Shown here: piece after piece, positions 2,148-62,698 of the stretch
Layout of the letters: each line of letters opens with the position of its first letter
Position numbering within the stretch: the first letter of the stretch is position 1
From: an uncultured Clostridia bacterium
Lineage (GTDB): Bacteria; Bacillota; Clostridia; TANB77; CAG-508
Assembly (NCBI GenBank): GCA_947589065.1
Contig: CANPZM010000001.1
Location: 455-64,454 of the forward strand
DNA length: 64,000 nucleotides
Direction of reading: 5' to 3'
Position numbers and translations under genes: made by a program
The notes under the pieces: model-generated
Seen by the model: the letters and a program-made list of their open reading frames with translations, nothing else
Told to the model about the DNA's origin: nothing
Databases searched by the model: none

Positions 2148-3707
2148 TTAAAAAGTTATCACAGCATCTATAGTCTGATTTGTATTATCTGCAGTATTGG
2201 TCGTAGTATTATTAGTTCCTTCTGTCATAGTATTATTTACAGAATTTTCAGTTTCATTTTCTACTTGATTTTGTACATTATTAGAAATTGTATTTTCTGT
2301 CTGCTCTGTTACCTGATTTTGATTTTGAATTTGATTTTGTAACTCTTCCTGTCTTTGTTTTTCTAGTTCTTCTTGTTTTTGTTTTTCTAATTCTTGCATA
2401 AGTTCGTCAAAATTTCTTCCAGTCTCTATATCAAATCGTTGTTGATCAACATTAGCACCAATCATGTTTTCACTTAAAACATTTATTTTACTTTCTATTT
2501 TATCTTCTGTATGCAAATCTCTTTGTGCATTAAGAACTGTAGCATATATTTTATTATAAAAGTCTTCTTTTACAGTTGCATATTTTTCATCTTCATTAAA
2601 TACCAATATATTTCTTTCATTTTGTACTCCATGAAAAACTGATACATATATTGAATAATAAATATTAGATTCTATTTTTACATTTTTTAATCTCTCTATT
2701 AATTTATTTTTATATTCTTCAATTATTTCTAATTCTTTTTCTGTAAACTCTTTATCTTCAGCTTTATATATAACTGCATCAATATAACAAGTATCGTTTA
2801 CTTTTTCATATAAGTCATACATTACTTTTGGTCTCTTTACAAAAACCGGAATATCCTTAGCTTGTTCTACGCTTGAACCATATAGATTTTCTCCAGACTT
2901 ATATCTATTATATATTGCTATATATGGTGCAAAATCTAACATATTTATTCTTATAGTTCTACCTTCTCTATATAATTCTATTACATTAGGATTAAATGAA
3001 AATTCAGTAACTTTATCATTATTATAATCAACTAGAAAGCTTAAAATTTCAGGTTCTACGCCTACATAAAATTCATTTGATATTCCCTCAGCAGTATAAT
3101 AATCAGCAGCTATCGTCTTATAAGCCGAAAAAGTAATAATATTTTTTATTGGTGCATTGCTTATGAATAAATCTTTTATTGAAATTCTTTCTCCATCAAC
3201 TAAGGAAAAATTTATTCCATAATTTTTACTATAATTTTCTTTAAATTGAACAAATATTTTTACAGATAACACATCAGAAAAATTTGCAGTAACCTCTGAA
3301 TCGACATAAGCTGTTGAATCTGAATTCGTTCTAAAATTATTACTTGAAAGTATCCTACTAATTCTATCTCTAATTTCATTATTTATTTTTTCTTGTACAC
3401 TACTATTATTTAGATTAGAAATTTGAGGATATTTTACATTAACATTATTTTCTCTATCTGTCTTATATTCCACATTAATTAAATTTAAATTATAAACATC
3501 TTCTAATTTAGCACCAACAACTATATTATCATCAGTATTTATGTCCTCGATTTTATTTTCAATAACTTTTGGTGCCTCTTCCACTATAACTTGTGACTCG
3601 CTTGGTTTATTAAAAAATCTAACATAAACTATAGTAGCTATAGTTATAATTAAAAGGATTACTGAAAAAACAATCAAAAATATTTTAGTTGGCTTATTAA
3701 TTATCAA
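2148..3707 (-). CDS. Membrane-anchored hypothetical protein (one N-terminal TM; possible DUF4163/DUF3298-like ectodomain; N/Q/E-rich low-complexity C-terminus)
   Basis: 519 aa. Hydrophobic segment IFLIVFSVILLIITIATIVYV near the N-terminus. C-terminal run QKQEELEKQRQEELQNQIQNQNQ. Overlaps the upstream gene by 11 nt, which suggests translational coupling. Confidence 0.5.
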   Translation of the reverse strand: MIINKPTKIFLIVFSVILLIITIATIVYVRFFNKPSESQVIVEEAPKVIENKIEDINTDDNIVVGAKLEDVYNLNLINVEYKTDRENNVNVKYPQISNLNNSSVQEKINNEIRDRISRILSSNNFRTNSDSTAYVDSEVTANFSDVLSVKIFVQFKENYSKNYGINFSLVDGERISIKDLFISNAPIKNIITFSAYKTIAADYYTAEGISNEFYVGVEPEILSFLVDYNNDKVTEFSFNPNVIELYREGRTIRINMLDFAPYIAIYNRYKSGENLYGSSVEQAKDIPVFVKRPKVMYDLYEKVNDTCYIDAVIYKAEDKEFTEKELEIIEEYKNKLIERLKNVKIESNIYYSIYVSVFHGVQNERNILVFNEDEKYATVKEDFYNKIYATVLNAQRDLHTEDKIESKINVLSENMIGANVDQQRFDIETGRNFDELMQELEKQKQEELEKQRQEELQNQIQNQNQVTEQTENTISNNVQNQVENETENSVNNTMTEGTNNTTTNTADNTNQTIDAVITF

Positions 3708-4677
3708 TATATCCAGCCTCCTTTATAATTTTTTTCCCTCTATCTGAATTTATAGCATCAATAAATATTTGCATAGTTTCAGAATTATTATTTTTTAACT
3801 TGACTAAATAATAATTTGTTATAAAAGGATACTGTTCATTTTTTATATTTTCATAATTAGGTTCTATATCATTAATGGACAATATTTTTGTTAAATCTCC
3901 ATTATTAACGTCTTTGCTAGTTGCTATATTATACATTTGCTTAGCATCGTAATAATAAGAATAACCTATTGCATTTTCAGAATTGTCATATGTTGCAATT
4001 ACATCATTTATTATTCCATATGATTTATCTTCAAATTCACGTGTAGGAGGTTCCATTAGTTTTAAAGTTTTCATTACAGAAGAAATCATTTGTCTCTGGT
4101 TAGCAGAATTTGGTGTTCTCTGGCAAGCAAATATTTCAGCATCTCTTCCCCCAAGTTGAGACCAATTTTTAATTTGACCAGTATAAATTTGTTGAATATC
4201 TGATACTTTTAAATTACTGATTGGATTATTATTATTTACATAAAATACAAATCCTTCTTTTGCTATTGGTATCATTTCCAACTCAACTTCGCTAGATTCT
4301 GCAATTCTAAGAATATCTTCTGATGGTTCAGTAGCAAGCAATAAATCAATTTCACCTTTAATTAATTTTTGATAACCATCTTCCTCTTTTGAAAAATTCA
4401 AATTAAGTTCTTGATTTTGAGTAAAATCTCTCACTATTGTTGTTAAAAGTGGTCTTGTAGCAATCATTGAATCTAGTGTAGGTAATTCATCTTCAGCCAA
4501 AATTACTTCATCTTTTTCTACATTCTCACCTTGCTGTGTATTTTCAATATATTTATCACTATCCTGTCCTACATTTATTGAAATCTTATCAGTAAAAAGG
4601 AAATATATAATTACACATATCACTGCCATAGCAATCATAATAAAAATTGGTAATGCAATATTTAAGAACTTTTTCAT
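3697..4677 (-). CDS. Membrane-anchored PstS-family (PBP-like) substrate-binding domain protein
   Basis: 326 aa. N-terminal TM IALPIFIMIAMAVICVIIYFLF. The motif IQQIYTGQIKNWSQLGG matches the PstS/PBP_like_2 signature (TG.I.nW..lGG). Confidence 0.6.
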   Translation of the reverse strand: MKKFLNIALPIFIMIAMAVICVIIYFLFTDKISINVGQDSDKYIENTQQGENVEKDEVILAEDELPTLDSMIATRPLLTTIVRDFTQNQELNLNFSKEEDGYQKLIKGEIDLLLATEPSEDILRIAESSEVELEMIPIAKEGFVFYVNNNNPISNLKVSDIQQIYTGQIKNWSQLGGRDAEIFACQRTPNSANQRQMISSVMKTLKLMEPPTREFEDKSYGIINDVIATYDNSENAIGYSYYYDAKQMYNIATSKDVNNGDLTKILSINDIEPNYENIKNEQYPFITNYYLVKLKNNNSETMQIFIDAINSDRGKKIIKEAGYIDN

Positions 4678-4801
4678 ACTAAATTCCCATCCTTTCCACT
4701 AAATAAACAAAATTTACTTATAATATTATATCTTTACCCAAAAAATTTGTAAATACTTGTTTTTTTATAATTTTTTTAATTTATGCATCAATCTTCCCAA
4801 A

Positions 4802-4866
4802 AATGTCAATAGGACGGAGAATCTGACACATTTTTAATATGTCAGATTCTCCGTCCCATTGACATT
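4802..4866 (-). terminator. Intrinsic terminator of tyrS with an unusually long stem (27 bp, 1 mismatch)
   Basis: AATGTCAATAGGACGGAGAATCTGACA..(loop)..TGTCAGATTCTCCGTCCCATTGACATT sits immediately after the tyrS stop. On the minus-strand RNA the hairpin is followed by UUUUUGGG. Confidence 0.7.
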
Positions 4867-6076
4867 ATTTTACTAGTTTGTGATAAATCTTTTTTCCTTT
4901 TTTTAAGATTGCATATCCAGCTTGGAAATCACTGTCTTGCAACATGTATGATATATCATCAATCTTTTTATCATTTAAAGTAATTGCACCTTGTGAAATT
5001 AATGTTTTAGCTTGACCTTTTGAATTAACTATTCCAGAAGTAACAATTGCATCTACAATAGAAATATTTCCATCAATTTTAGTTTCTTCCATTGTATCAA
5101 CATTTCCTTTTCCTTCAAACATTGCCATAGTTGCCTCTTCAGCTTTTTTTGCTTCTTCCTTTCCGTGCACTAATTTAGTAATCTCATAAGCAGCAATCTT
5201 CTTTGCTTCATTTATTCTTTCATCTTTATATTTAGTTAACTCTTCTATTTTATCAACATCAATAAACGTTAGAAGTTTCATAACATTTTCAATATCATCA
5301 TCAGCAACATTTCTCCAATATTGATAAAATTCATATGGTGAAGTTTTCTCAGGATTCAACCATAATGCACCTTTTTCGGTCTTTCCCATTTTCTTTCCTT
5401 CTTTAGTTGTCAATAATTTAAATGTAAAACCATAAGAATCATCAGCACCAATTTTTCTAATTAAATCTACTCCACCTATTATATTAGACCATTGGTCATT
5501 ACCACCCATTTGTAATTTACAATCATAGTTATCATGTAAATACAAGAAATCATATGATTGCATTAGCATATATCCTAATTCAAAAAAAGTTAAACCTGTT
5601 TCTAATCTATTTTTATAGCATTCTGCTGCAAGCATTTTGTTTACAGAAAAATGTACTCCAACATTTCTCATAAATTCAAGATATTTTAAGTCTCTTAACC
5701 AATCAGCATTATTTACAATAATCGCTGCATTTTCTCCTTCAAGACTTAAAAATTTTTCAATTTGTTTTTTTATTGAAGCAACATTATTATCAATATCTTC
5801 TATTGTAAGCATTTTTCTCATATCAGTTTTTCCAGATGGATCACCTATTACAGCAGTTCCTCCGCCCATCAAAATAATAGGTTTATGTCCAGCCTTTTGC
5901 ATATGTGATGCTACCATTAAAGAAATAAAATGTCCTACATGTAAACTATCAGCAGTTGGATCAATTCCTATATAAAATCTAACGCTCTCTTTTTCGAATA
6001 ATTTTTTTATTTCTTCAGGATGAGTTAATTGTTCCACATAACCTCTTTTTTCTAATGTATCAAATACGTTTGTCAT
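4865..6076 (-). CDS. tyrS: tyrosyl-tRNA synthetase
   Basis: 403 aa. HIGH-type motif HVGH and KMSKS-type motif KMGKT. A C-terminal S4-like domain is present. Confidence 0.95.
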   Translation of the reverse strand: MTNVFDTLEKRGYVEQLTHPEEIKKLFEKESVRFYIGIDPTADSLHVGHFISLMVASHMQKAGHKPIILMGGGTAVIGDPSGKTDMRKMLTIEDIDNNVASIKKQIEKFLSLEGENAAIIVNNADWLRDLKYLEFMRNVGVHFSVNKMLAAECYKNRLETGLTFFELGYMLMQSYDFLYLHDNYDCKLQMGGNDQWSNIIGGVDLIRKIGADDSYGFTFKLLTTKEGKKMGKTEKGALWLNPEKTSPYEFYQYWRNVADDDIENVMKLLTFIDVDKIEELTKYKDERINEAKKIAAYEITKLVHGKEEAKKAEEATMAMFEGKGNVDTMEETKIDGNISIVDAIVTSGIVNSKGQAKTLISQGAITLNDKKIDDISYMLQDSDFQAGYAILKKGKKIYHKLVK

Positions 6077-18593: not shown

Positions 18594-18935
18594 TTAATAA
18601 TTTCCATTATCATCAAATTGACTAACACCATATATCAATTGTATCACATAATCATCTATTATTTCTCTATTTTCATTCATTTTTTTCTTTAAATTATTGA
18701 TTTCATCTCTAGTTAAATTTTTCACGTACTTATAATTTTGGGTATGTTCAGGCTCTTCAATTTCTAAATCATCAAATACTTTTCCATTTTCATAAATTTT
18801 CACTGCTCTACTACCAAAAGCAAAATAATATGTTGTCTCATATAATACTTTTTGATTGTACTTATTATATGCAACAAATATGCTTACAGCTAAAATAATT
18901 ACTATCAATATTACTAATACTATTGTTTTTTTCAT
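18594..18935 (-). CDS. Small membrane-anchored hypothetical protein
   Basis: 113 aa with an N-terminal TM. Its start overlaps the stop of the upstream cmk-like gene by 4 nt (translational coupling). Confidence 0.4.
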   Translation of the reverse strand: MKKTIVLVILIVIILAVSIFVAYNKYNQKVLYETTYYFAFGSRAVKIYENGKVFDDLEIEEPEHTQNYKYVKNLTRDEINNLKKKMNENREIIDDYVIQLIYGVSQFDDNGNY

Positions 18936-19621
18936 AATAATATTCCTTCAATTTTTACAAATTTTTTTATTTCTTTTAACATTATATCAAAAACTTCATT
19001 AATATTTAAATTTGTTGTATCAATTTCTATAGCATTTTGTGGTTTAATAAAATTTCCACCATTTATATCTAAATCATCTCTAATCTTCAAATTATTTCTT
19101 ATTGTTTCTATACTAATTCGTGTATCTTTTTTCCATAATCTTTCTACTCTTTTTTCAAAATCTGAATATAAATAAAACTTAACTTCAGCATCAGGTACTA
19201 TTCTAGTTGCTATATCTCTTCCTTCCATAACTGTATCATTATTTTGTACAAAATCTCTTTGTATTTTTCTTACTATTTCTTTTATTTCTGGTAATGTAGC
19301 CCATCTAGTAGATTTAACAGATATTTCCTCTGTTTGAATTTTTTCTGTAACATCTATATCATTTAAATAAACTTTTTCATCTATAAAATCTATTTTTATA
19401 TTTGACAACTTGTCTATTATCTTATCTAAATTACTGATATCATAATTGTGATTAACAATTTCTAATGCTATACATCTATATATAGCACCTGTATTAAAAT
19501 TTTTGAAATTTATTTTTGTAGAAATCATTTTCGCCAATGTTGATTTTCCATTAACACCTAATCCATCTATTGTAATTACCAAATTCTTTCTCCTTTTTGT
19601 ATAAATCATTTTTAGGCACAT
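18932..19621 (-). CDS. Cytidylate-kinase-family paralog (divergent second Cmk)
   Basis: 229 aa. Clearly homologous to the cmk at 575..1234 (NTGAIYRCIAL vs DTGATYRCVAL; VMEGRDIATRIVPDAEVKFYL vs IMEGRDICTYVFPNADVKIYL). Its P-loop is GLGVNGKST rather than GPAGSGKGT. Confidence 0.7.
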   Translation of the reverse strand: MCLKMIYTKRRKNLVITIDGLGVNGKSTLAKMISTKINFKNFNTGAIYRCIALEIVNHNYDISNLDKIIDKLSNIKIDFIDEKVYLNDIDVTEKIQTEEISVKSTRWATLPEIKEIVRKIQRDFVQNNDTVMEGRDIATRIVPDAEVKFYLYSDFEKRVERLWKKDTRISIETIRNNLKIRDDLDINGGNFIKPQNAIEIDTTNLNINEVFDIMLKEIKKFVKIEGILL

Positions 19622-36233: not shown

Positions 36234-38018
36234 TTATTCAAAAAAAGCATTAAACTCATCTTCTGAAATTGTTTCTCTTTCTAATAGTGTCTGTGCAACA
36301 GCATGTAATATATCTATATTGTCTAAAATAAGTTTTTGGGCTTTAATATAAGCTTCATCAACTAATTGTTTTACTTGCACTCCAACTTCATCAGTAATAT
36401 TTTCTCCAAAAATCTGTAATTCATAAGGCTCATCAACTTTTAATGATATTGGACCTAAAGAGCTACTCATCCCATATACTGTAATCATATCTCTTGCAAT
36501 ACCTGTAGCTACTTCAATATCATTACTTGCACCTGTTGATATATCATTTAAAGCAATTTTTTCTGCAGCTCTTCCACCTAATAAAGCTATCATCTTTTCT
36601 TCTAATTCAGTTTTAGAAATATAGTACTTATCTTCATTAGTTTTATACATTGTATAGCCACCAGCTAATCCTCTAGGAATGATTGATACCTCTTTTACAT
36701 TATCCTGTGTTTCTAGAAATTTACTAACAACAGCATGTCCAGCTTCATGATAAGCTGTAAGTTTCTTATCTTTTTCAGAAACAACTCTATTATGTTTTTC
36801 TAATCCAACAGTTATTTTCTTTACAGCAGATTCAATATCATCTTTTTCAATTGATTTATGTTTATTTCTAGTTGCTAAAATAGCTGCTTCATTTAATAAA
36901 TTAGATAATTCTGCTCCTGTAAATCCTGCAGTATCTCCAGCAATTTCTTTTAAGTCAATATTATCTGCAAGTTTTTTATCTTTAGCATATAATTTTAGTA
37001 TTTCTTCTCTTCCTAATAAATCTGGTGCAGGAATTGTAATTTGCCTATCAAATCTTCCAGGCCTTAGTAAAGCTTTATCTAACATTTCTGGTCTATTTGT
37101 TGCTGCAAGTACAATAATTGTTTCATTACTCTCAAATCCATCCATTTCAACAAGTAATTGATTTAGTGTCTGGTTATTTTCTGATTCTGCACCACTGTTA
37201 CTTGTCCTTCTTGATCCTATAGCATCAATTTCATCAATAAATACTATACATGGTGCAATCTTTTTAGCCTTCTCAAATAATTTTCTTACTCTTGACGCAC
37301 CAAGTCCAGCAAACATTTCAATAAATTCAGAACCACTCATTGAAATAAATGGAACATTTGCTTCTCCTGCTATTGCCTTAGCAATTAAAGTTTTACCTGT
37401 ACCAGGTTTTCCATATAATAGAATTCCTTTTGGAATTTTAGCTCCCATACTTTGAAATTTCTTAGGATTTTTCAAAAAGTCTACTATTTCAATTAATTCA
37501 TTTTTTTCCTCATCTAATCCAGCAACATCCTTAAATTTAACACCTGTATTATTCTCTTCATTTTCACCATAAACTTTGCTTTTCTCACCAATACCCTGCA
37601 TTTTAAATATCATTATTATCAAAACAACTAATAATATAGTTGGTATAAAACTAAATAAATTTTCTGCAAATGTAATAAATTTATTTGGAGTCTTTACATC
37701 AAATTTTAATTCATCATTTTTTACTAATTGTTCATTTACAAACTCCATAAATGGTTGAAGAGAATTTATATTTGAAGTCTTTTCATCATCAGAGTCTTTA
37801 TATTTAACATTGACACTAGAAGATCCTACTGTCATTTCTATTTTCTCAACTCTCTTATGAATTATATCTTGATACAATTGATCATAAGTAACCTTTTTTT
37901 CCTCAGCTTTTTGGGTTTGATAAATTACTAACAATATTGTCATCACTGATATAAGTACAATACCAAATATTATTAAAAATATTTTTACATTATTTTTCTT
38001 ATCCTTACTATTTGCCAT
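36234..38018 (-). CDS. ftsH: ATP-dependent zinc metalloprotease FtsH
   Basis: 594 aa. Two N-terminal TMs, AAA module (GPPGTGKT, DEIDA) and M41 HEAGHA zinc motif. Confidence 0.95.
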   Translation of the reverse strand: MANSKDKKNNVKIFLIIFGIVLISVMTILLVIYQTQKAEEKKVTYDQLYQDIIHKRVEKIEMTVGSSSVNVKYKDSDDEKTSNINSLQPFMEFVNEQLVKNDELKFDVKTPNKFITFAENLFSFIPTILLVVLIIMIFKMQGIGEKSKVYGENEENNTGVKFKDVAGLDEEKNELIEIVDFLKNPKKFQSMGAKIPKGILLYGKPGTGKTLIAKAIAGEANVPFISMSGSEFIEMFAGLGASRVRKLFEKAKKIAPCIVFIDEIDAIGSRRTSNSGAESENNQTLNQLLVEMDGFESNETIIVLAATNRPEMLDKALLRPGRFDRQITIPAPDLLGREEILKLYAKDKKLADNIDLKEIAGDTAGFTGAELSNLLNEAAILATRNKHKSIEKDDIESAVKKITVGLEKHNRVVSEKDKKLTAYHEAGHAVVSKFLETQDNVKEVSIIPRGLAGGYTMYKTNEDKYYISKTELEEKMIALLGGRAAEKIALNDISTGASNDIEVATGIARDMITVYGMSSSLGPISLKVDEPYELQIFGENITDEVGVQVKQLVDEAYIKAQKLILDNIDILHAVAQTLLERETISEDEFNAFFE

Positions 38019-45444: not shown

Positions 45445-47376
45445 TTATTTAACTTTAGCAAAATCGATTTCTCTTTTTTCTTTACTTGCATATATCACCT
45501 TAATTTTTATACTATCACCTATTTTATACATTATATTCGTTTTTTTTCCTATTAAAGTCCTGTTAGATTCATTAAATATAAAATATTCATCACCTAAATT
45601 TTCAAAACGAATCAATCCCTCAATTGTATTTTCTAATTCTACAAAAATTCCAAAATCAGTAACAGAAGATATAATTCCATCATATTCTTCTCCAATTTTA
45701 TCTTCCATAAATTCAGCTTTTTTCAAACTTTCAGCTTCTCTTTCTACCCTTTGAGCAATTTTTTCTCTTTCAGATGAATTTCTTGCATATTTTTCAACCT
45801 TTTCCTTAAATTTTTCTTTCTGTTTTTCAGTTGAACTCCAATACTCAGAAATGATTCTATGTATATATAAATCTGGATATCTTCTAATAGGTGACGTAAA
45901 GTGACAATAATATTTGCTTGCTATACCAAAATGTCCACAATTTTCACTATCATATTTTGCAACCTTTAAAGTTCTTAAAATTAAATTTGAAACTACTTTC
46001 TCTTCAGGTTTTCCCTTTACCTCATCTAATACTTTCGAAAAAGCTGAAGGATAAATCGTATCTTGACTTATATGGATCTTATATCCTAAATTAAATAAAA
46101 ATTTATTTAGTTCTTTTACTTTATCAATATCTGGTTCTTCATGAACTCTATAAATAAAAGGAATTCCCAGCCAATAAAACCTTTCAGCAACTGTTTCATT
46201 AGCAATCAACATAAACTGTTCTATAATTTCATTTGCAAAATTTACTTCATATTTTTTTACATCTATGCATTTTCCTGTAATATTATCTAAAACAATTTTG
46301 CTTTCTGGCAAATCTAAATTTAAATAGCCCTTTTCCTTCCTTTTTCTTTTTAAAATATTAGCTAATTCTGCCATTAGTTTAAAATCACTAACATATTTTC
46401 TATATTTTTTTAATGTCTCACTATCTGATTCATCTAATATTTTTTGGACATTAGTATAACTCATTCTTTCAGTAACCTTTATAATTGCATTATATATATC
46501 TGAAGAAATTACATTACCATCTGAATCTATTTCCATTGTTACAGATAATGTATATCTATCTACTCCAGCATTTAAACTACATATTCCATTAGATAATTCT
46601 CTTGGTAGCATTGGTATAACTCTATCAAGCATATATATACTTGTTCCTCTAATCCTGGCTTCTCTATCTAATTTAGACTTATCTTTTACATAATGACTAA
46701 CATCAGCAATATGAACATTTAATATGTAATTTCCATTTTCATTTTTTTCAACAGAAACCGCATCATCTAAATCCTTAGCATCTTCACCATCAATTGTAAA
46801 AATTGTTTTATTGCGTAAATCACGTCTTTCTTTAGTATAATCCTCTTGTATTTTAGTGCCAAAAACTTTTGCTTCTGCCACCACATCTTCAGGAAATTTA
46901 GCAGGTAATTTAAATTCTTTTATTAAACTAAGCATGTCCACACCTGCTTGATTAATGTTTCCAATAACTTCTACAATTTCACCTTCAGCCTTACGTCCCT
47001 TTTCCGGATATTTTGTAATTTTTACTACAACCTTGTGCCTATCTCTTGCTTTTCCAAAATTCTTCTTGGAAATAAAAATGTCTGTCCCAAATTTCTTATC
47101 ATCAGGAACTACAAATCCAAAATTTTTAGATTTTTGAAAAGTACCAACTAAAGATTCTTTTCCCCTTCTAACAATCCTAACTATTTTTCCTTCTTGACTT
47201 TTATCATTAACATTAGTTTTTATCATTTCTACTTCTACAACATCTTCATTTAGTGCATTATTTATATACTTAGATGGAATAAAAATATCGTTTTTTATAT
47301 CATTATTTTCTGGTTTTACAAAGCCAAATCCTTTCTCATTAGCATTAAATATGCCTATTACTTTCTCCTTTTCCAT
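45445..47376 (-). CDS. rnr: ribonuclease R
   Basis: 643 aa. Cold-shock/OB N-terminus, RNB catalytic domain and C-terminal S1 domain. Confidence 0.9.
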   Translation of the reverse strand: MEKEKVIGIFNANEKGFGFVKPENNDIKNDIFIPSKYINNALNEDVVEVEMIKTNVNDKSQEGKIVRIVRRGKESLVGTFQKSKNFGFVVPDDKKFGTDIFISKKNFGKARDRHKVVVKITKYPEKGRKAEGEIVEVIGNINQAGVDMLSLIKEFKLPAKFPEDVVAEAKVFGTKIQEDYTKERRDLRNKTIFTIDGEDAKDLDDAVSVEKNENGNYILNVHIADVSHYVKDKSKLDREARIRGTSIYMLDRVIPMLPRELSNGICSLNAGVDRYTLSVTMEIDSDGNVISSDIYNAIIKVTERMSYTNVQKILDESDSETLKKYRKYVSDFKLMAELANILKRKRKEKGYLNLDLPESKIVLDNITGKCIDVKKYEVNFANEIIEQFMLIANETVAERFYWLGIPFIYRVHEEPDIDKVKELNKFLFNLGYKIHISQDTIYPSAFSKVLDEVKGKPEEKVVSNLILRTLKVAKYDSENCGHFGIASKYYCHFTSPIRRYPDLYIHRIISEYWSSTEKQKEKFKEKVEKYARNSSEREKIAQRVEREAESLKKAEFMEDKIGEEYDGIISSVTDFGIFVELENTIEGLIRFENLGDEYFIFNESNRTLIGKKTNIMYKIGDSIKIKVIYASKEKREIDFAKVK

Positions 47377-47498
47377 AAAAATCCTTTCTCTTTTAACCTA
47401 TAGAGCTTATCTTATAAAGTAATTGATTAACAATAAATTCAATTACTTCATTACAAAAAAATAAGAGCGATAAAAACTTCGCCCCCAAATATATATCA

Positions 47499-47753
47499 TT
47501 ATTTTACTAAATTAAGAACTGTAAGTACAATAGTTAAAATAACAAATATAACTGAAAATATAATTGTTAATTTCTTTACTCTACCTTCCTTAGTTCTTCC
47601 TTTATTTTTCTCATAGAAGTTACTTCCTGAAGAACCTCCAACTATACTTGCTGATGCACCGCTTTTATCATTTTTTTGTATTAATACTAAAAATATTACT
47701 ATTATACAACATAAAACATATACAATTGTTAATATATCTACTAATCTACCCAT
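47499..47753 (-). CDS. secG: preprotein translocase subunit SecG
   Basis: 84 aa, two TM segments with a Gly/Ser-rich loop (SIVGGSSGSNF). Confidence 0.8.
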   Translation of the reverse strand: MGRLVDILTIVYVLCCIIVIFLVLIQKNDKSGASASIVGGSSGSNFYEKNKGRTKEGRVKKLTIIFSVIFVILTIVLTVLNLVK

Positions 47754-47849
47754 TTATAAAATTCCTCCACATCTTATCTATCATAATAATATCTAAATTT
47801 TAACACATATAATTTGCAAATGCAAATTAATTTTTATATTTTATCAAAC

Positions 47850-48110
47850 ATTTTAAATTTGAGAAAGAAGCAAGCATTGCTATGCAAATTTGAGTTGAAA
47901 CACCAGAAACGTATTTTTTTATATTTTGAAGCTTTCCAATCTCAAATTTAACAACGCAAGGCGACTCTTACCTTTCAAATATTTTAAGTTTGAAAAAGAA
48001 GCAAGCATTGCTAGGCAAATTTGAGTTGAAACACCGGAAACGTATTTGTATACGTTGAGGATTTTCAAGCTCAAATTTAACAACGCAAGGCGACGCTTAT
48101 CTTTCAAACT
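47850..48110. repeat. Tandem direct repeat, two copies of about 131 bp at roughly 90% identity, each with nested inverted repeats, abutting the ileS stop codon
   Basis: Copy 1 is 47850-47980 and copy 2 is 47981-48110. Shared cores include GAAGCAAGCATTGCTAKGCAAATTTGAGTTGAAACACC and CTCAAATTTAACAACGCAAGGCGAC. Outer stem AAATTTGAG/CTCAAATTT. Copy 2 has an intact inner hairpin AACGTATttgtATACGTT that is degenerate in copy 1. Confidence 0.85.
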
Positions 48111-50877
48111 ATTCTAAATTCTCTACACAACGACTACAAATATGAGGATGTTCTGGATTCTTTCCAACTGTTTCAGAATACATCCAACATCTTTCACATT
48201 TTTCACCATCAGCTAGTTCTACTTTTACTCCTATTTCAGTATCTTCATCTCGTTTATTATTTTCTATTTCAACTTTTGATACTATAAACACAGTCGTTAA
48301 TAAATCTTTATCATTATATAATTGTTTATATTTATCCTCATTAACAAATAATGTTACTTTGGCATTAAGAGAATGTCCTATAACTTTCTCCATTCTAGCT
48401 TCCTCTAATTTCTTAGATACATCCTCTTTTAATTTTATAATCTTTTCCCATTTTTCTTCTAACTGCTTGTTTTCATATTCTGGTTTGTATACTGGATAAT
48501 CTGTAAGCATAACACTATCAACTTCTTCATCTTTACGATGTGGCATTGCTTGCCATATTTCTTCTGCAGTATAGCATGTCATTGGTGCTAATATTTTAAC
48601 AAGAGCATCCAATATCTCATACATAACTGTTTGTGCAGATCTTCTTTCTAAAGAATCAGCCTTAGAAGTGTATAATCTATCTTTTATTATATCTAAGTAA
48701 AATGTACTCATATCAACAACACAAAACTGATTAATTGCTTGGTATGCATTGTGAAAATCATATTCATCATATGCTTTAGTACACTCTTTGACTAATTTAT
48801 TTAATCTTGTTAATGCCCATTTATCTATTTCTAATAAATCTTTATAAGGCGTTGGTAAATTTACTGGGAAATCATATGTATTTCCTAAAATATATCTAGC
48901 TGTATTACGTATCTTTCTATATACTTCTGTTACCTGCTTTATTATTGATTTTGAAACACTAACATCTGATTTATAATCTGATGATAATACCCAAAGTCTT
49001 AAAACATCAGCTCCTGATTCATTTATTATTTCTTGTGGAGCAATAACATTTCCAATAGATTTAGACATTTTTCTTCCTTGTTCATCTATTGTATATCCAT
49101 GTGTAACAACCTCTTTATAAGGTGCTTTACCTTTAGTTGCAACTGATGTTAATAAAGATGATTGGAACCAACCTCTATATTGATCACTTCCTTCTAAATA
49201 TAAATCAGCATCTGGAAGTCCACGTTCTGCAAGTACTGATTCATGTGTAGAACCAGAATCAAACCAAACATCCATTATATCAGTTTCTTTCTTAAATTCT
49301 GTACAACCACATTCACATTTTGCTCCTTCAGGTAATAATTCCTTTTCAGATAATTCAAACCATGCATTTGAACCTTTTTCTTTAAATATTCTTTGTATTT
49401 TGTCTAAACTTTCTTCAGTTACATATTCTTTTTCACAATCTTTGCAGTAAAATACTGGTATTGGAACTCCCCATGTACGTTGACGAGATATACACCAATC
49501 GTTTCTATCTTCAACCATTTTGGTAATTCTTTCTTCTCCCCATTCTGGATACCATTTTACTGTTTTTATAGCATCTAAGGTTTCTTTTCTAAATCCATCA
49601 ACAGATGCAAACCATTGACTTGTTGCTCTATAAATAACTGGATGTTTACATCTCCAGCAATGTGGATAAGAGTGGTTTATTTCTTTTGCTGCAAGTAAAT
49701 ATCCATTTTCATCAAGCCACTTGATTATTTCTTTATCTGATTTAGCATAAAACATACCAGCAAAAGGACCAGCTTCAGCTGTTTGATGTCCTTTTCCATC
49801 AATGCAAACTATCATATCTAAACCATTTTTTAATCCACACAAATAGTCTTCTTTACCATAACTTGGTGCTGTATGAACTGCACCTGTACCACTATCTAAA
49901 GTAACATCTACTGTATCAGTACTTCCTAGAACTACTTTTGAATCTCTATCTAAAAATGGATGTCTACATATAATTCCTTCTAAAACAGAACCTTTCATTT
50001 CATCAACAACTTTATAATCTTCGATTCCTGCTACTTGCATTACTTCTTCAACTAAAGCAGATGCCATTATTAGTTTTTCATCTCCAACTTTTACGAAACT
50101 ATAATCATAATCTGCTCCAATAGTTATACCTGTATTGCCTGGCAAAGTCCATGGAGTTGTTGTCCATATTACAACAAATGTATTTTCTTCATTAAATAAC
50201 CCATTAGCTTCTTTAACAGGAAATTTTACATATGCAGTATTTGAATTTATATTTTTATATTCTATTTCAGCTTCAGCCAATGCAGTTTCACAATCACTAC
50301 ACCAATAAACTGGTTTTAATCCTTTATATATATATCCTTTTTTATACATATCAGCAAAAACTCCAATTTGCTTTGCCTCCATTTGTGGTTGATATGTTAT
50401 ATAAGGATTTTCCCATTCTCCCAAAACACCTAGTCTTTTGAAACCTTCTGTTTGTTTATCTTTATATTGCATAGTAAAATTTTTACAAGTGTCTCTAAAC
50501 TTAGTTACTGGTATTTCATCTCTGTTTAATCCTAATGCTTGAATTGCCTTCTTTTCAGTTGGCATTCCATGTGTGTCATAACCTGGTATAAAAGGTGTCC
50601 AATATCCTTTTAAACTTTTATATCTAACTATTGTATCTTTTAATACTTTATTTAGTGCGTGACCTATATGTATTTCACCATTAGCATAAGGTGGTCCATC
50701 ATGTAGTACAAAAGGAGTTTTTCCCTTATTTTTTTCTAGCATTTGACGATAAATATGTTTTTTTTCAAACACTTCCTCTAATATTTTAGGTTCTTTTTCC
50801 GGTAATCCAGCTCTCATTTGAAAATTTGTTTTAGGCAAATTTAAAGTTGAACTATAATCCATTTTCTCTTCGCTCAT
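48109..50877 (-). CDS. ileS: isoleucyl-tRNA synthetase
   Basis: 922 aa. HIGH (HIGHAL) and KMSKS motifs, CP1 editing domain, C-terminal zinc finger (C-terminus ...CERCW...CSRCVENLE). Confidence 0.95.
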   Translation of the reverse strand: MSEEKMDYSSTLNLPKTNFQMRAGLPEKEPKILEEVFEKKHIYRQMLEKNKGKTPFVLHDGPPYANGEIHIGHALNKVLKDTIVRYKSLKGYWTPFIPGYDTHGMPTEKKAIQALGLNRDEIPVTKFRDTCKNFTMQYKDKQTEGFKRLGVLGEWENPYITYQPQMEAKQIGVFADMYKKGYIYKGLKPVYWCSDCETALAEAEIEYKNINSNTAYVKFPVKEANGLFNEENTFVVIWTTTPWTLPGNTGITIGADYDYSFVKVGDEKLIMASALVEEVMQVAGIEDYKVVDEMKGSVLEGIICRHPFLDRDSKVVLGSTDTVDVTLDSGTGAVHTAPSYGKEDYLCGLKNGLDMIVCIDGKGHQTAEAGPFAGMFYAKSDKEIIKWLDENGYLLAAKEINHSYPHCWRCKHPVIYRATSQWFASVDGFRKETLDAIKTVKWYPEWGEERITKMVEDRNDWCISRQRTWGVPIPVFYCKDCEKEYVTEESLDKIQRIFKEKGSNAWFELSEKELLPEGAKCECGCTEFKKETDIMDVWFDSGSTHESVLAERGLPDADLYLEGSDQYRGWFQSSLLTSVATKGKAPYKEVVTHGYTIDEQGRKMSKSIGNVIAPQEIINESGADVLRLWVLSSDYKSDVSVSKSIIKQVTEVYRKIRNTARYILGNTYDFPVNLPTPYKDLLEIDKWALTRLNKLVKECTKAYDEYDFHNAYQAINQFCVVDMSTFYLDIIKDRLYTSKADSLERRSAQTVMYEILDALVKILAPMTCYTAEEIWQAMPHRKDEEVDSVMLTDYPVYKPEYENKQLEEKWEKIIKLKEDVSKKLEEARMEKVIGHSLNAKVTLFVNEDKYKQLYNDKDLLTTVFIVSKVEIENNKRDEDTEIGVKVELADGEKCERCWMYSETVGKNPEHPHICSRCVENLE

Positions 50878-51212
50878 ATTATTCCTCCTATATATTATTT
50901 TTAATTTTTACATATATTTATATAATAGGAAAGGTATACTTTCCCATTATATAAAAAAACAATTCATCACATAGGACGAATTGTTCCGCGTTACCACCTA
51001 ATTTAATTCTAATATAAAATATTAAAAATCTCTCCAGCATTTTATAACGTAAAATGAAACGTCATACCTTACTCTATTAATTTATTTCAGATATGAAACT
51101 CCAAGGTGATAATAAATAAATAGTTCTTACCAAAATCGCACCATATTTTTGGCTCTCTTTAAGACATTTTTTATTTATCTTGTCCTTATCTAAGTTTTTC
51201 TAATAATTTTAA
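50878..51212 (-). ncRNA. T-box riboswitch leader of ileS (probable Ile specifier AUC; antiterminator/terminator switch)
   Basis: Minus-strand AAAUUAGGUGGUAACGCGG (the reverse complement of 50985-51008) matches the T-box consensus AAUUAGGGUGGUACCGCG. An overlapping terminator hairpin AACAATTC...GAATTGTT is followed by U7 just upstream of the ileS RBS. AUCA lies in a candidate specifier loop. The length of about 335 nt is typical. Confidence 0.75.
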
Positions 51213-53591: not shown

Positions 53592-55931
53592 TTGTTAAAG
53601 TCAATTGGTAGTTTTATAGGAAAAAATGTAGATAAATTCTTAAAAATCTTAAAAACTGATAGAAACACTTTTTTCACCTATATATTAACTCTAGCAACTG
53701 CATATATCTGTATTGATAGACTTTTTGAAATGATTTTTTTAATTTTCTTTGGAGTATCAGTTTCATACTGGGGACCTTTCATGTATACTCTTGCATATGC
53801 GTGCCCTGTATTTGCTTTTTTATTTGGTGCTGCTTCAAAATTTGCAGTAGATGATGTTCAAAAATTTTCTATGTTTAAGTTATATTACATAGCTTTATAT
53901 ATAATAGGTCTATCTATGGCAATGCAATGGGTTAATCAAGCATTATGGTTCTTACTATTCATGTTACCAAATTATGTAGGAATAGTTACTCAATTTATGG
54001 ATCTGATAAAACCCGCTTTCATGGCAATCGCATGTTACTTACCAGTAATCACGATTCTACCTGTTATAAAGAAAATGCTTTTAACATATGCAGATACTAA
54101 AGACATAAGAGATTCAGTTGCTGATTATAATGGTATTTCTCTTGAGGCTCCTAGTGAAGCAGTTGGACCATATACATGTGAAATGCTTATATGTAGAGAT
54201 ATAGAAAAAGGTAAAATAATAAAAACACCCGAATCTAGAAGATTTGAGGCTACACTAATTGTTGGTGTTTCTGGTTCAGGAAAAACAACAATGGCATTTG
54301 AGCCAATGATTGCTCGTGACATTGAGAAAAAATTCTTTTTCAAAGAAGCTTCTAAGGAACTTGGATTTGCGGCATTAAAAACAGGAATAGCTTCAATTAG
54401 AGAACCATTTTCTAATGAATATATAAATGAACATTTTTCATTAAATATGTTAGAAATTCGACCCGGAAAAGAAAAATTATTTAATACATATTTGCATAAA
54501 TTAATATACTATTCTTCAAGTAATCAAACTGTATTTAAAGATTTAGGTCTTACATATATTGCACCCGATTATGAGTCAATTTCACATATAATTGAAGTAT
54601 TAGATAATTATGAAATGAAATATAATTTAGTGGATCCAAATGATATGAATTCCATTGGTTTAAATCCTTTCATATTTGATGATCCAGTAAAAACATCTTT
54701 AGCAATATCAGCCGTACTTAAAAGAATGTATGATACAAATGAAGTTACTACACAACAAGCTTATATGCAAAACATTACAACACAAGCAATTGAAAACTTG
54801 TCATTACTATTAAAAGAAGTATATCCAAAAACTCACAATGGAACATTACCTAATCTTGAAGATTTGCTAATGATGTTAAATAATTTTGAACTTGTAGAGC
54901 AATTTTGCGAAAAAATGAAAAAACTTCCAGAACTTGCAGAAAAATATAAAATTCTACTTACCTATTTCAAAAACAATTTTTATGCAAATTCTCAAGGCTA
55001 TAATGATACTAGGAAATCATTACAAGCAGCCAGTGCTCAACTAGAAAATCTACTTCGTTTTCCTGGTGTAAGAAATATTTTATGTAATAGAACAAATAAT
55101 ATTAACTTTGATAATGCTTTAAAAAATGGTGAAATAACATTAATTTGTACAAGACGTGGTGATTTAGGAGCATCTGTAAATAAAGCTTTTGGTTTATTTA
55201 CTCTTCTATTAATGCAACATTCTATAATATCTAGACCAGGTATTGAAAAATCAAGATTACCACATTTCTTATATATTGATGAATTTCCTCCATTTGTATG
55301 TAAAGCCACAGAAGATTTCTTCACACTATTTAGAAAATACAGAGTTGGTTTAATTATATCTGCCCAAAACTTATCACAGTTTGGAACTAATACTAATTTA
55401 ACAAATTCACAAAATTATAGACAAACTATACTTGCAAACTGCACAACAAAAATAGTATTTGGTAATAATACCCCAGAAGATAATGAATGGTGGTCAAAAG
55501 AATTCGGTGATAAACGTGATTGGTTATTTAAAATGGATTATAATACTGGCGATGTTCAATATGATAAAAAATACAAAGATATCGCTTGGGGTTATAAAGC
55601 AAACTTCCAAGCCGGAAAAGTACAATCACAAAAATTCAAAGCAATTATATATAAAACTAGAGATATAAAAGGAAAAATGCTTGTTGGTAAAGGAAAACTT
55701 GATTTTATTGAATCAAAACATAAAGAAAAACATCATTCAAAACAATTTAATTTTTCAAAATATTATGATACTGCTACAACTCAAGAAGCTTCAGAATCAT
55801 CATTTGTAAATGATTCTCAATCATTTGATGAAGATCCAATTAAATATAATAATACAAATGATTCAAGAATGTTTTTAGAAAGTGATGGTGCTATAACTTA
55901 TACAATTAATAAACCATCTAAAAAGAGTTAA
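53592..55931 (+). CDS. VirD4/TraG/TraD-like type IV coupling protein-family ATPase with a polytopic N-terminal membrane domain (orphan)
   Basis: 779 aa. TTG start with SD GAGAGG. Four to five N-terminal TM segments. Walker A GVSGSGKTT, Walker B FLYIDEFPPF. T4CP-type motifs RVGLIISAQNLSQFG (cf. VirD4 IRFHIIAQSLGQL) and TKIVFGNNTPEDNEWWSKEFG (cf. VirD4 RIAFGANDPATAE.LSK.LG). Confidence 0.6.
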   Translation: MLKSIGSFIGKNVDKFLKILKTDRNTFFTYILTLATAYICIDRLFEMIFLIFFGVSVSYWGPFMYTLAYACPVFAFLFGAASKFAVDDVQKFSMFKLYYIALYIIGLSMAMQWVNQALWFLLFMLPNYVGIVTQFMDLIKPAFMAIACYLPVITILPVIKKMLLTYADTKDIRDSVADYNGISLEAPSEAVGPYTCEMLICRDIEKGKIIKTPESRRFEATLIVGVSGSGKTTMAFEPMIARDIEKKFFFKEASKELGFAALKTGIASIREPFSNEYINEHFSLNMLEIRPGKEKLFNTYLHKLIYYSSSNQTVFKDLGLTYIAPDYESISHIIEVLDNYEMKYNLVDPNDMNSIGLNPFIFDDPVKTSLAISAVLKRMYDTNEVTTQQAYMQNITTQAIENLSLLLKEVYPKTHNGTLPNLEDLLMMLNNFELVEQFCEKMKKLPELAEKYKILLTYFKNNFYANSQGYNDTRKSLQAASAQLENLLRFPGVRNILCNRTNNINFDNALKNGEITLICTRRGDLGASVNKAFGLFTLLLMQHSIISRPGIEKSRLPHFLYIDEFPPFVCKATEDFFTLFRKYRVGLIISAQNLSQFGTNTNLTNSQNYRQTILANCTTKIVFGNNTPEDNEWWSKEFGDKRDWLFKMDYNTGDVQYDKKYKDIAWGYKANFQAGKVQSQKFKAIIYKTRDIKGKMLVGKGKLDFIESKHKEKHHSKQFNFSKYYDTATTQEASESSFVNDSQSFDEDPIKYNNTNDSRMFLESDGAITYTINKPSKKS

Positions 55932-60814: not shown

Positions 60815-62698
60815 TTATATATTTAAATTTTCTTTAAAAAATGACTGTACCTCATCTGCTGAAAGTTGTTCTTTCTCGCAAAGAATTGATGAAAGCTTCA
60901 TCAAAATTTGTTTATTGCTATCTATTATCTTTTTTGTACTCTCATACAATTCGCTACATATTTTTTCAGCTTTTTCCATAGCAGAGGTATCTATATTTTT
61001 GTTATATGATATTTCTCCTGAAACTTTTACCATATAAGAACCAGCCATAGCATATCTTCCTACCATTTGTAATACCAATTTACTTGCAACTTCTAAATCA
61101 TTACTTGCTCCACTAGAAACATCGTTGAATATTACTTCTTCAGCTGCCCGTCCTCCATAGCAAACTTGAATTTCCTTTTCAATATCAGATTTTCTTAAAT
61201 ATTCACTATCAGACGATTCAAACAAGTTATATCCACCAGCTTTTCCACGTGGTACTATAGAGATTCCTAAATTAGCAGTTTCGGGTTTTACAATAGCTGA
61301 AACAATAGCATGACCCGCTTCATGAACCGCAGTCAATTTTTTATCTGACTCTACAATCTTTTTAGATTTTTTCTGAATACCAATCCTTACTCGTGCAATT
61401 GCTTCATCTATTTCTGACATAGAAATATATCCTTTTTCTCTATTCACGGCTAATATAGCAGCTTCATTGAGAACGCATTCCAAATCAGCCCCACAAAAGC
61501 CAATAGTTCTTTTAGCAATTTCACTTAATATTACATCTTCAGAAAAAACTTTATTTCTTGCATGAACCCTGAGAATTTTTTCTCTTGCTACAATATCCGG
61601 CATTGGAATATAAATGTGTCTATCAAATCTTCCACGCCTTGTTATTGCAGAGTCTAAAACCTCAAGATGGTTTGTAGATGCGATAACAATAACATTATCT
61701 ACACTTGTAAATCCATCAATTTCAGCAAGTAACTGATTTAAAGTCTGTTCACTATACGACTGACCACTATACCTATCGCGAGCAATTGAATCAATCTCAT
61801 CAATAAAAATAATACAAGGGGCAGATTTTTTAGCAATTTCAAAAAGTTTTCTAACTTTGTCAGCACCAACTCCGACAAACTTATTATCAAAATTTGAACC
61901 ACTCTCATAAAAGAATGGAACATTAGCTTCCCCTGCAATTGCTTTTGCAAGAAGAGTTTTTCCTGTTCCAGGTTCTCCATTGACAATAATGCCTTTTGGT
62001 GGTCTTGCACCCATCAGCTGATACACATATGGATTTTTTAAAAAATCTACAATTTCTTCAAACTGCTCTTTTTCCTCATCTAGACCTGCAACATCTTCGA
62101 AAGTAACTTTAGAAGTAACTGGTTCAATTTTTATATTATCACCTAGCACTCCTCCCAAACTACTTTCAAGCGTCTTAGATGACCTTTTTAGCATTTTAAA
62201 AAGAAATACAATCCATAAAACTGGTAATAATAAACTGATTAAATTAAAGATCGTATCAGCCGCACCTACATCAGATTTAACAGCATTAATTTCTATTTCA
62301 GCTCCATTTTCAATCTTCCGCTGAATAAATTCCATAAAACTATCTTTGCTTGGAATTTCCGCTTTTGCCTCTTTACCATCATTTAATACAATAGATACCT
62401 CATCTTCAGAAATATCTAATTTAGATACTGAATCACTTTGTATATAATTTACAAGTTTATCATACGTTATTAATTCAGGTTTCTTTTTAAACAATGGTAA
62501 AATTATTCCAAAAACAAAAACTTCCATAAATAAGATAAATAATAACACATGTACCAATCTAATTTTGCGAATATTTAATCTTCTCTTATTAGGATTACCT
62601 CCTTCATCACTATCTGTGGGATTATTGCTTCCCATGTTCTCTGTTGTCCGTGAGTCCAATTTATCATTTGAACTCAAATACCTAACCCCATTTGTCAT
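60815..62698 (-). CDS. FtsH-family AAA+ zinc metalloprotease, second paralog with an N-terminal extension
   Basis: 627 aa. [20 protein letters not shown] 45-aa polar N-terminal extension precedes the first TM. Confidence 0.85.

Follow-up and report, generated by a model that had tools for sequence, protein, structure and literature searches.

Proteobacteria, Neisseria, pneumococci and the Bacillus cereus group have well-documented small palindromic repeats, which are barely charted in uncultured gut Clostridia. REP heads carry a conserved GTAG-like tetranucleotide. REPINs are REP doublets, two inverted halves that together make a single long hairpin; they occur in tens to hundreds of copies per genome and have a cognate single-copy Y1 (RAYT) transposase, usually REP-flanked. 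In Pseudomonas and the enterobacteria they form ordered clusters, which are tandem repeats that include flanking sequence (PMC3116915). The bcr1 repeats of the Bacillus cereus group are ∼155 bp long, while among MITEs ERIC measures ∼127 bp, RUP 107 bp and Correia/NEMIS ∼104–157 bp (PMC3184786).

Here we characterize two head-to-tail copies of a palindromic unit of similar size that lie between ileS and secG in a 64,000 nt stretch of DNA (GCA_947589065.1, contig CANPZM010000001.1, forward strand 455–64,454; hereafter the window). Judged by the homologues of its IleS and SecG, the organism is one of the uncultured low-GC Clostridia; its closest IleS homologue shows 90% identity, that of Clostridium sp. 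CAG:571 77%, and the window has a GC content of 27%. The pair is likely to represent an undescribed, dispersed and lineage-restricted family of ∼120–130 bp palindromic intergenic repeats of the MITE/REPIN/ERIC/bcr1 kind; one element came in at the ileS stop codon and was probably copied on the spot.

As in a REPIN, the whole extragenic element is one long imperfect hairpin (37 pairs in the family consensus) whose structure is maintained while the sequence drifts. It also lacks a clear target-site duplication, and its tandem clusters include flanking bases (X1, X2 and X3 in Table 1, and arrays at the related loci L064 and L063). Unlike the REPIN hosts, the organism is a low-GC Clostridia bacterium and not a Proteobacterium, and the sequence is AT-rich, not GC-rich. 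In the alignment the unit heads, TTTGAAAG, GTTGAAAAAA, ATTGAGAAA and GTGATAAAT, show no GTAG-type conserved head. Compared with REPIN copy numbers, a single locus is present in 64 kb of this genome, and no cognate Y1 transposase was found among the 44 of 48 window ORFs scanned.

With classical MITEs the element shares terminal inverted repeats, small size, a lack of coding capacity, and filled and empty orthologous sites (ileS-secG and secG-rnr). Classical MITEs also have a target-site duplication of constant length at each insertion and a parent insertion sequence sharing their ends; 9–10 nt repeats flank the units here, and none is visible at L059:9497 or L059:13155 of a relative. ERIC, RUP and Correia are likewise similar in size, with terminal inverted repeats and an imperfect palindrome along their whole length. 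They too are intergenic, co-transcribed with their neighbours (here only probably so) and present or absent in different strains. They differ in that their target duplications are well defined (TA or otherwise short), and in that promoters and IHF sites are known for Correia; they do not usually form direct tandem arrays, and our element has neither sequence similarity to them nor an Rfam match.

The bcr1 repeats provide a Firmicute parallel, an intergenic repeat in the range of ∼130–155 bp in which compensatory changes keep the structure and individual copies have become less stable, like copy 1 of our pair. However, bcr1 has a two-arm cruciform-like fold with 5 bp flanking direct repeats, shares no sequence similarity with our element and has been demonstrated to be transcribed, which is only probable here. 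An intrinsic terminator or SPRITE-type repeat would also put a hairpin immediately behind a gene, its base A-rich on the 5′ side and U-rich on the 3′ side. Intrinsic terminators have a GC-rich stem with a U-tract right behind it, but the U-run of our element lies inside the stem and not after it, the stem is ∼55 bp long and AT-rich, and a consensus scan was negative. Because there is no sequence or model match to any of the named families, we do not file the element under any of them; it is a new family of a familiar kind.

Results

Two direct copies of a 131 bp unit begin at the ileS stop codon

Tandem Repeats Finder reported 47844–48120 as a single array of 2.1 copies with a period of 131, 87% matches and 2% indels (score 422), bearing out the original prediction of a ∼131 bp tandem duplication. 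The identity of the two head-to-tail copies, put at roughly 90%, was 87.8–88.1% by BLAST. Blocks of 21 and 25 nt from the unit each occurred exactly twice in the window, where none was expected by chance. The period corresponds to a 124 nt hairpin plus a spacer. The array extends to 48120 because direct repeats of 9–10 nt bracket the units, so that the periodicity enters ileS by about 12 nt. Copy 2 was said to overlap the ileS stop; the overlap of its hairpin base with the UAG codon is real, since the basal stem begins at 48110 and the codon occupies 48109–48111.

Table 1. Features of the ileS-secG region and members of the repeat family at other loci. Positions refer to the window unless a locus is named.
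Feature	Position	Strand	Remarks
T-box leader controlling ileS transcription	50969–51201	−	Rfam RF00230, 102.7 bits, above gathering score
ileS, isoleucyl-tRNA synthetase, 922 aa	48109–50877	−	Pfam tRNA-synt_1, Anticodon_1, zf-FPG_IleRS; the repeat is its 3′ flank
Direct repeat X1, TTTAGAATAG	48109–48118	−	Final codons and stop codon of ileS; read from sequence
Repeat unit copy 2	47984–48112	−	First unit 3′ of ileS; best preserved; covariance-model match 134–136 bits
Perfect apical hairpin AACGTAT-TTGT-ATACGTT, copy 2	48039–48056		Helix covaries across the family (helix 4)
Inter-unit direct repeat X2, CTTAAAATA	47980–47988	−	Read from sequence
Repeat unit copy 1	47853–47983	−	Second unit 3′ of ileS; covariance-model match 117–121 bits
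Distal direct repeat X3, TTTAAAATG	47849–47857	−	After copy 1; read from sequence
Spurious 62 aa ORF across the repeat	47919–48107	−	Without Pfam match
secG promoter-like site, TTTGCA-18-TAAAAT	47797–47826	−	Upstream TG (extended −10); conserved in relatives; downstream of repeat
secG, 84 aa	47499–47753	−	Downstream gene; Pfam SecG, 2.8e-18
Intrinsic terminator after secG	47462–47487	−	Sole terminator-like site in 47300–48300
Family member	L059:13155–13285		After secG terminator
Family member	L059:9497–9625		After HU terminator
Family member	L063:15–143 (GCA_947588885.1)		Upstream of ybaK-like gene; partial units on both sides
Family array	L064:3586–3880		After secG terminator; full-length member 3586–3715

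On the minus strand the order is T-box leader, ileS, copy 2, copy 1, promoter-like site, secG, terminator, rnr and a class A PBP. The 62 aa ORF across the copies had been called an artefact of the repeat, and two very large searches agree: no homologue was present in 5.8 billion clustered proteins, nor, by full HMMER, in 1.84 billion representatives. The same ORF, used as a translated probe, revealed no further copies of the element. A scan for tRNA and tmRNA genes found none, and among the 44 of 48 window ORFs scanned with Pfam there was no transposase, recombinase or integrase. Promoter-like hexamers at the unit edge were at chance level (seven found, 6.4 expected), and neither a promoter nor a terminator of the unit's own rose above chance expectation.

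Variation and further structure were seen around secG. A metagenome contig of the same species (L002:247–307, compared with window 47803–47830) has lost 28 nt, and with them the −35 part of the secG promoter-like site; it also has a base change in the −10 region. Between the secG terminator and rnr there is a small 8 bp hairpin, GTAATTGA...TCAATTAC (47410–47450, minus strand), at the place where L059 and L064 carry a family member.

Some features elsewhere in the window were also recorded. Of the 48 window ORFs that reach 90 aa, just one is on the plus strand (53592–55931). It encodes a 779 aa protein with a TraG-D_C domain, and its neighbours encode MurJ and a P-type ATPase. The relatives L059 and L065 have this gene too, at the same place and likewise inverted, and it is therefore a fixed feature and not a recent mobile insertion. 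Two FtsH paralogues (36234–38018 and 60815–62698) account for a direct repeat, D1, of 300 nt and 71% identity at 37219 and 61785. There are also two cytidylate kinase paralogues (575–1234 and 18932–19621).

Each unit folds into a single long hairpin

The unit was originally described as a multi-hairpin element. Folding of the whole region instead gave one long interrupted hairpin of ∼124 nt per unit, at 47987–48110 for copy 2 and 47857–47980 for copy 1. The minimum free energy of copy 2 was −41.7 to −46.6 kcal/mol on the minus strand (z = −6.8) and −39.1 kcal/mol on the plus strand (z = −5.4). Copy 1 was weaker, at −29.5 to −31.1 kcal/mol (z = −2.6) and −20.2 kcal/mol, respectively. Both the sequence and the folds confirmed that only copy 2 has the perfect apical hairpin; that of copy 1 has decayed.

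The 9 bp stem AAATTTGAG/CTCAAATTT is indeed present in both copies, but it forms the middle of the ∼124 nt hairpin and not its outer part. Similarly, the sequences proposed as mini-hairpins, AGCAAGCATTGCT and CGCAAGGCG, are there but go unused as such in the minimum-energy fold, in which the two segments pair with each other; these self-complementary sequences are absent from the related elements. The view that the unit is not a plain terminator was upheld, because no U-tract follows the stem and the terminator scan calls only the secG terminator.

The pair is absent from the orthologous spacer of relatives

We compared the locus with those of eight related species that share the synteny HU-ileS-secG-rnr-PBP1 and have IleS proteins 83–90% identical to that of the window. 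The ileS-secG spacer is 355 nt long here and 67–90 nt in the eight species. In a multi-species alignment, what is left of the spacer after removal of both units aligns with the spacers of the relatives, with a −35 box, a TG-extended −10 box and a ribosome-binding site for secG. Hence ∼262 bp were added in this lineage only, and the comparison marks the pair as a lineage-specific insertion. The spacer of every relative examined lacked the element and had no precursor hairpin after ileS, and loci around ileS in Clostridium sp. CAG:571 contained no family member. The sequence TAAAATGTTTG after copy 1 was considered as an ancestral flank on the basis of a match to L012; it was dropped, the match falling in the secG −35 region of the multi-species alignment.

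Both copies were present, at 100% identity, in two metagenome contigs of the same species (L001 and L002). A third contig (L003:1–160) has a single hybrid unit composed of a copy 2 head and a copy 1 body, which is what recombination between the copies would leave. It represents either a one-copy allele or an assembly collapse; its coverage is only 1.8×, so that it may be an assembly artefact.

Related elements occupy other intergenic sites

Homologous elements were found at other intergenic sites of three related species. When the loci of relatives were compared with the unit by BLAST, one of them proved to carry, between secG and rnr, a sequence 79% identical over the 75 nt core. A covariance model, first made from five units and then refined with six, matched full-length members elsewhere in the three species with 110–125 bits (E = 1e-21 to 1e-25; Table 1). 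Two of these loci lie within 22.8 kb in L059. L064 carries a tandem array with a period of 121 and 2.4 copies, and L063 at least 2.5 units, a complete one standing between the end of another and the first half of the next. Since these arrays join the ileS-secG pair, the element is tandem at three of the five loci. At all five it points in the direction of the neighbouring genes. A family member fills the secG-rnr site of L059 and of L064; L005, L053 and the window have none there, and the distribution of the family relative to IleS identity is patchy. No member was seen in the 8–23 kb sampled from four other species of the clade.

No second locus was found in the 64 kb window, even by a covariance-model search with filters off. 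The marginal match of that search (4775–4893, 19.7 bits) was rejected as a family member, being an unrelated terminator with an unusually long stem. At 4796–4862 there is a 27 bp perfect inverted repeat with an 11 nt loop, directly after the stop of a tyrS-like gene (4865–6076, minus strand) and followed by a T-run on the minus strand.

Wider searches with exact seeds, which would miss diverged copies, gave chance matches of 19–27 nt only, as checked by BLAST. The seeds were an 18-mer for GTDB representative genomes, a 19-mer for JGI metagenomes, and a 16-mer and an 18-mer for viral contigs. A motif-pattern scan of viral contigs found nothing, and blastn of the pair against plasmids and phages gave no match. 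In Rfam the repeat was unmatched at E ≤ 10, the whole window yielded only the ileS T-box at the gathering score, and the related members gave chance-level matches only; no known RNA family therefore matches any member. Eight short metagenome contigs start or end within the element, which is typical of repeated or copy-number-variable sequence.

A different repeat was observed in a relative, L065. It is ∼113 nt long, has two internal hairpins and follows the rnr terminator (L065:15231–15340) and the HU terminator (L065:8915–9030). It is absent from the rnr site of L066 (15210–15240) and of L067, both of which encode the identical IleS. Every such site, whether filled or empty, has AGTCGCTACGCTCCA in front of it. 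The repeat is the second small insertion element seen in the clade and likewise lands behind terminators.

The ends of the unit resemble those of a MITE

The terminal inverted repeats of the family are 14–17 nt long; they read TTTGAAAGATAAGC / GCTTCTTTTTCAAA in the ileS-secG units and match at 16 of 16 nt in L064. Together with the three similar 9–10-mers that flank the two units and the variable presence of the element between species, they would suit a classical MITE mobilized by a DDE transposase. The terminal repeats would then be the transposase binding sites, TTTAGAATAG / CTTAAAATA / TTTAAAATG the target-site duplication, and the second copy a product of unequal crossing-over. We consider this explanation unlikely. 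Neither L059:9497 nor L059:13155 has a visible flanking duplication, the palindrome spans the whole element and not its ends alone, and the period of 121 in L064 cuts inside the 5′ terminal repeat, pointing to local duplication and not transposition. A parent insertion sequence, whose ends would begin TTGAAAAA, was not found, and none of the 44 scanned window ORFs is a transposase.

Structure is conserved across the family, with no consistent strand preference

All members have in common the motifs GTTAAA, AATCCTC, CTCCGG and TTTGCCT[AT]G, with TTGA-AAA at the head. The fold showed strong covariation, 22 of 37 pairs having changes on both sides (13 of 37 covary in a structure-blind MAFFT alignment). 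In all, 90.9% of cells were paired, against 34–50% in slid controls, and none of 500 shuffles reached the observed value.

The main rival to a mobile repeat is a selected RNA element, with which this strong covariation would agree. The units would belong to a functional structured RNA family under selection for RNA structure, either a 3′-UTR element that stabilizes or processes the upstream mRNA or a 3′-UTR-derived small RNA, with the tandem copies serving dosage. All members share the short asymmetric motifs, and one U-G pair is invariant, as such a family would have them, and five of five loci are co-oriented with their flanking genes and lie just 3′ of a stop codon or terminator. However, gene direction equals replication direction in all sampled regions. 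In the window the minus strand encodes 47 of 48 ORFs (≥90 aa) and GC skew is negative throughout, so the co-orientation may reflect replication and not transcription.

The strand-sensitive measures also speak against an RNA. There were 14 G-U and eight A-C cells, a count that balances at eight each without the invariant U-G pair, and the antisense strand folded better in four of six members, by 5–14 kcal/mol. The structural signal is not strand-specific. Moreover, the orthologous spacer has no element in any relative, the apex of copy 1 has decayed, truncated units exist, and the unit has no promoter or terminator of its own beyond chance. We regard a selected RNA as improbable. The original prediction had offered a small structured RNA, a repeated regulatory 3′-UTR element or an intergenic repeat family; homologues at other intergenic sites favour the last of these, while the empty orthologous spacers, the decaying copy and the lack of a consistent strand preference in folding go against the regulatory element.

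If native 3′ sequence of ileS, for instance an old terminator hairpin, had been duplicated once on the spot, this would explain why the window has a single locus and why large exact-seed scans found no matches. Yet three related species have homologues, at intergenic sites of three other kinds, and relatives have no precursor hairpin after ileS; these findings contradict such a duplication and leave it very little probability. Integron attC sites begin with RYYYAAC and end with GTTRRRY, and are associated with gene cassettes and a nearby IntI. A ∼125 nt imperfect palindrome beginning at a stop codon, with structure conserved above sequence and with GTTAAAT in copy 2 matching GTTRRRY, recalls such a recombination site, but this is the most remote of the explanations, as that motif is internal to the left arm and not at the 3′ end, is not conserved, and has TTTGCC as its partner and not RYYYAAC; housekeeping genes of conserved synteny flank the pair, no cassettes separate the directly repeated units, and no integrase occurs among the 44 of 48 window ORFs scanned.

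Discussion

We favour a mobile palindromic repeat as the origin of the pair. The empty sites show that one element came to lie in the short spacer between ileS and secG, right at the stop codon of ileS. The element and a few flanking bases would then have been duplicated in tandem by slippage or unequal recombination, a step suggested by the 9–10 nt repeats around the units and the tandem habit at two other loci. Local duplication is preferred to a second transposition because the repeated unit includes those few flanking bases, and because the L064 period falls within a terminal repeat. Copy 1 has subsequently lost its apical helix. The hairpin may have been kept because single-stranded or cruciform DNA is the substrate of the enzyme that spreads the element; alternatively, hairpins may simply be what survives in intergenic space.

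The T-box-controlled ileS mRNA probably includes the pair as its 3′ end. There the pair would fold into two interrupted hairpins of ∼55 bp between ileS and the secG promoter. Such hairpins might hold up 3′ exonucleases or recruit double-strand RNases, and might in part uncouple ileS from secG-rnr. Any effect on the ileS mRNA, or on the expression of ileS or secG, is inferred. Downstream of the insertion secG retains its own conserved promoter-like site.

The locus offers a clean comparison of filled and empty sites, together with a covariance model that recovers relatives. It provides evidence that, in very compact genomes, elements of this type lodge immediately 3′ of stop codons and terminators, and that they are repeatedly amplified in tandem. 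The main use of the family is as a caveat for annotation and assembly. The elements break metagenome assemblies, as the many contigs that end in them indicate, and they create spurious ORFs. Because their covariation is strong, they can also pass for regulatory RNAs.

More speculatively, the family could be a REPIN-like replicator of small-genome, low-GC gut Clostridia, although we give this only a low chance. It would spread as a single-stranded DNA hairpin through an unrecognized enzyme, in one orientation relative to replication or transcription, with a preference for sites 3′ of terminators and stops and a proneness to local tandem amplification. Alternatively, it may be a real 3′-UTR RNA module that the host has reused. 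If true, either a REPIN-like replicator or a reused 3′-UTR module would take hairpin-replicator biology beyond the Proteobacteria.
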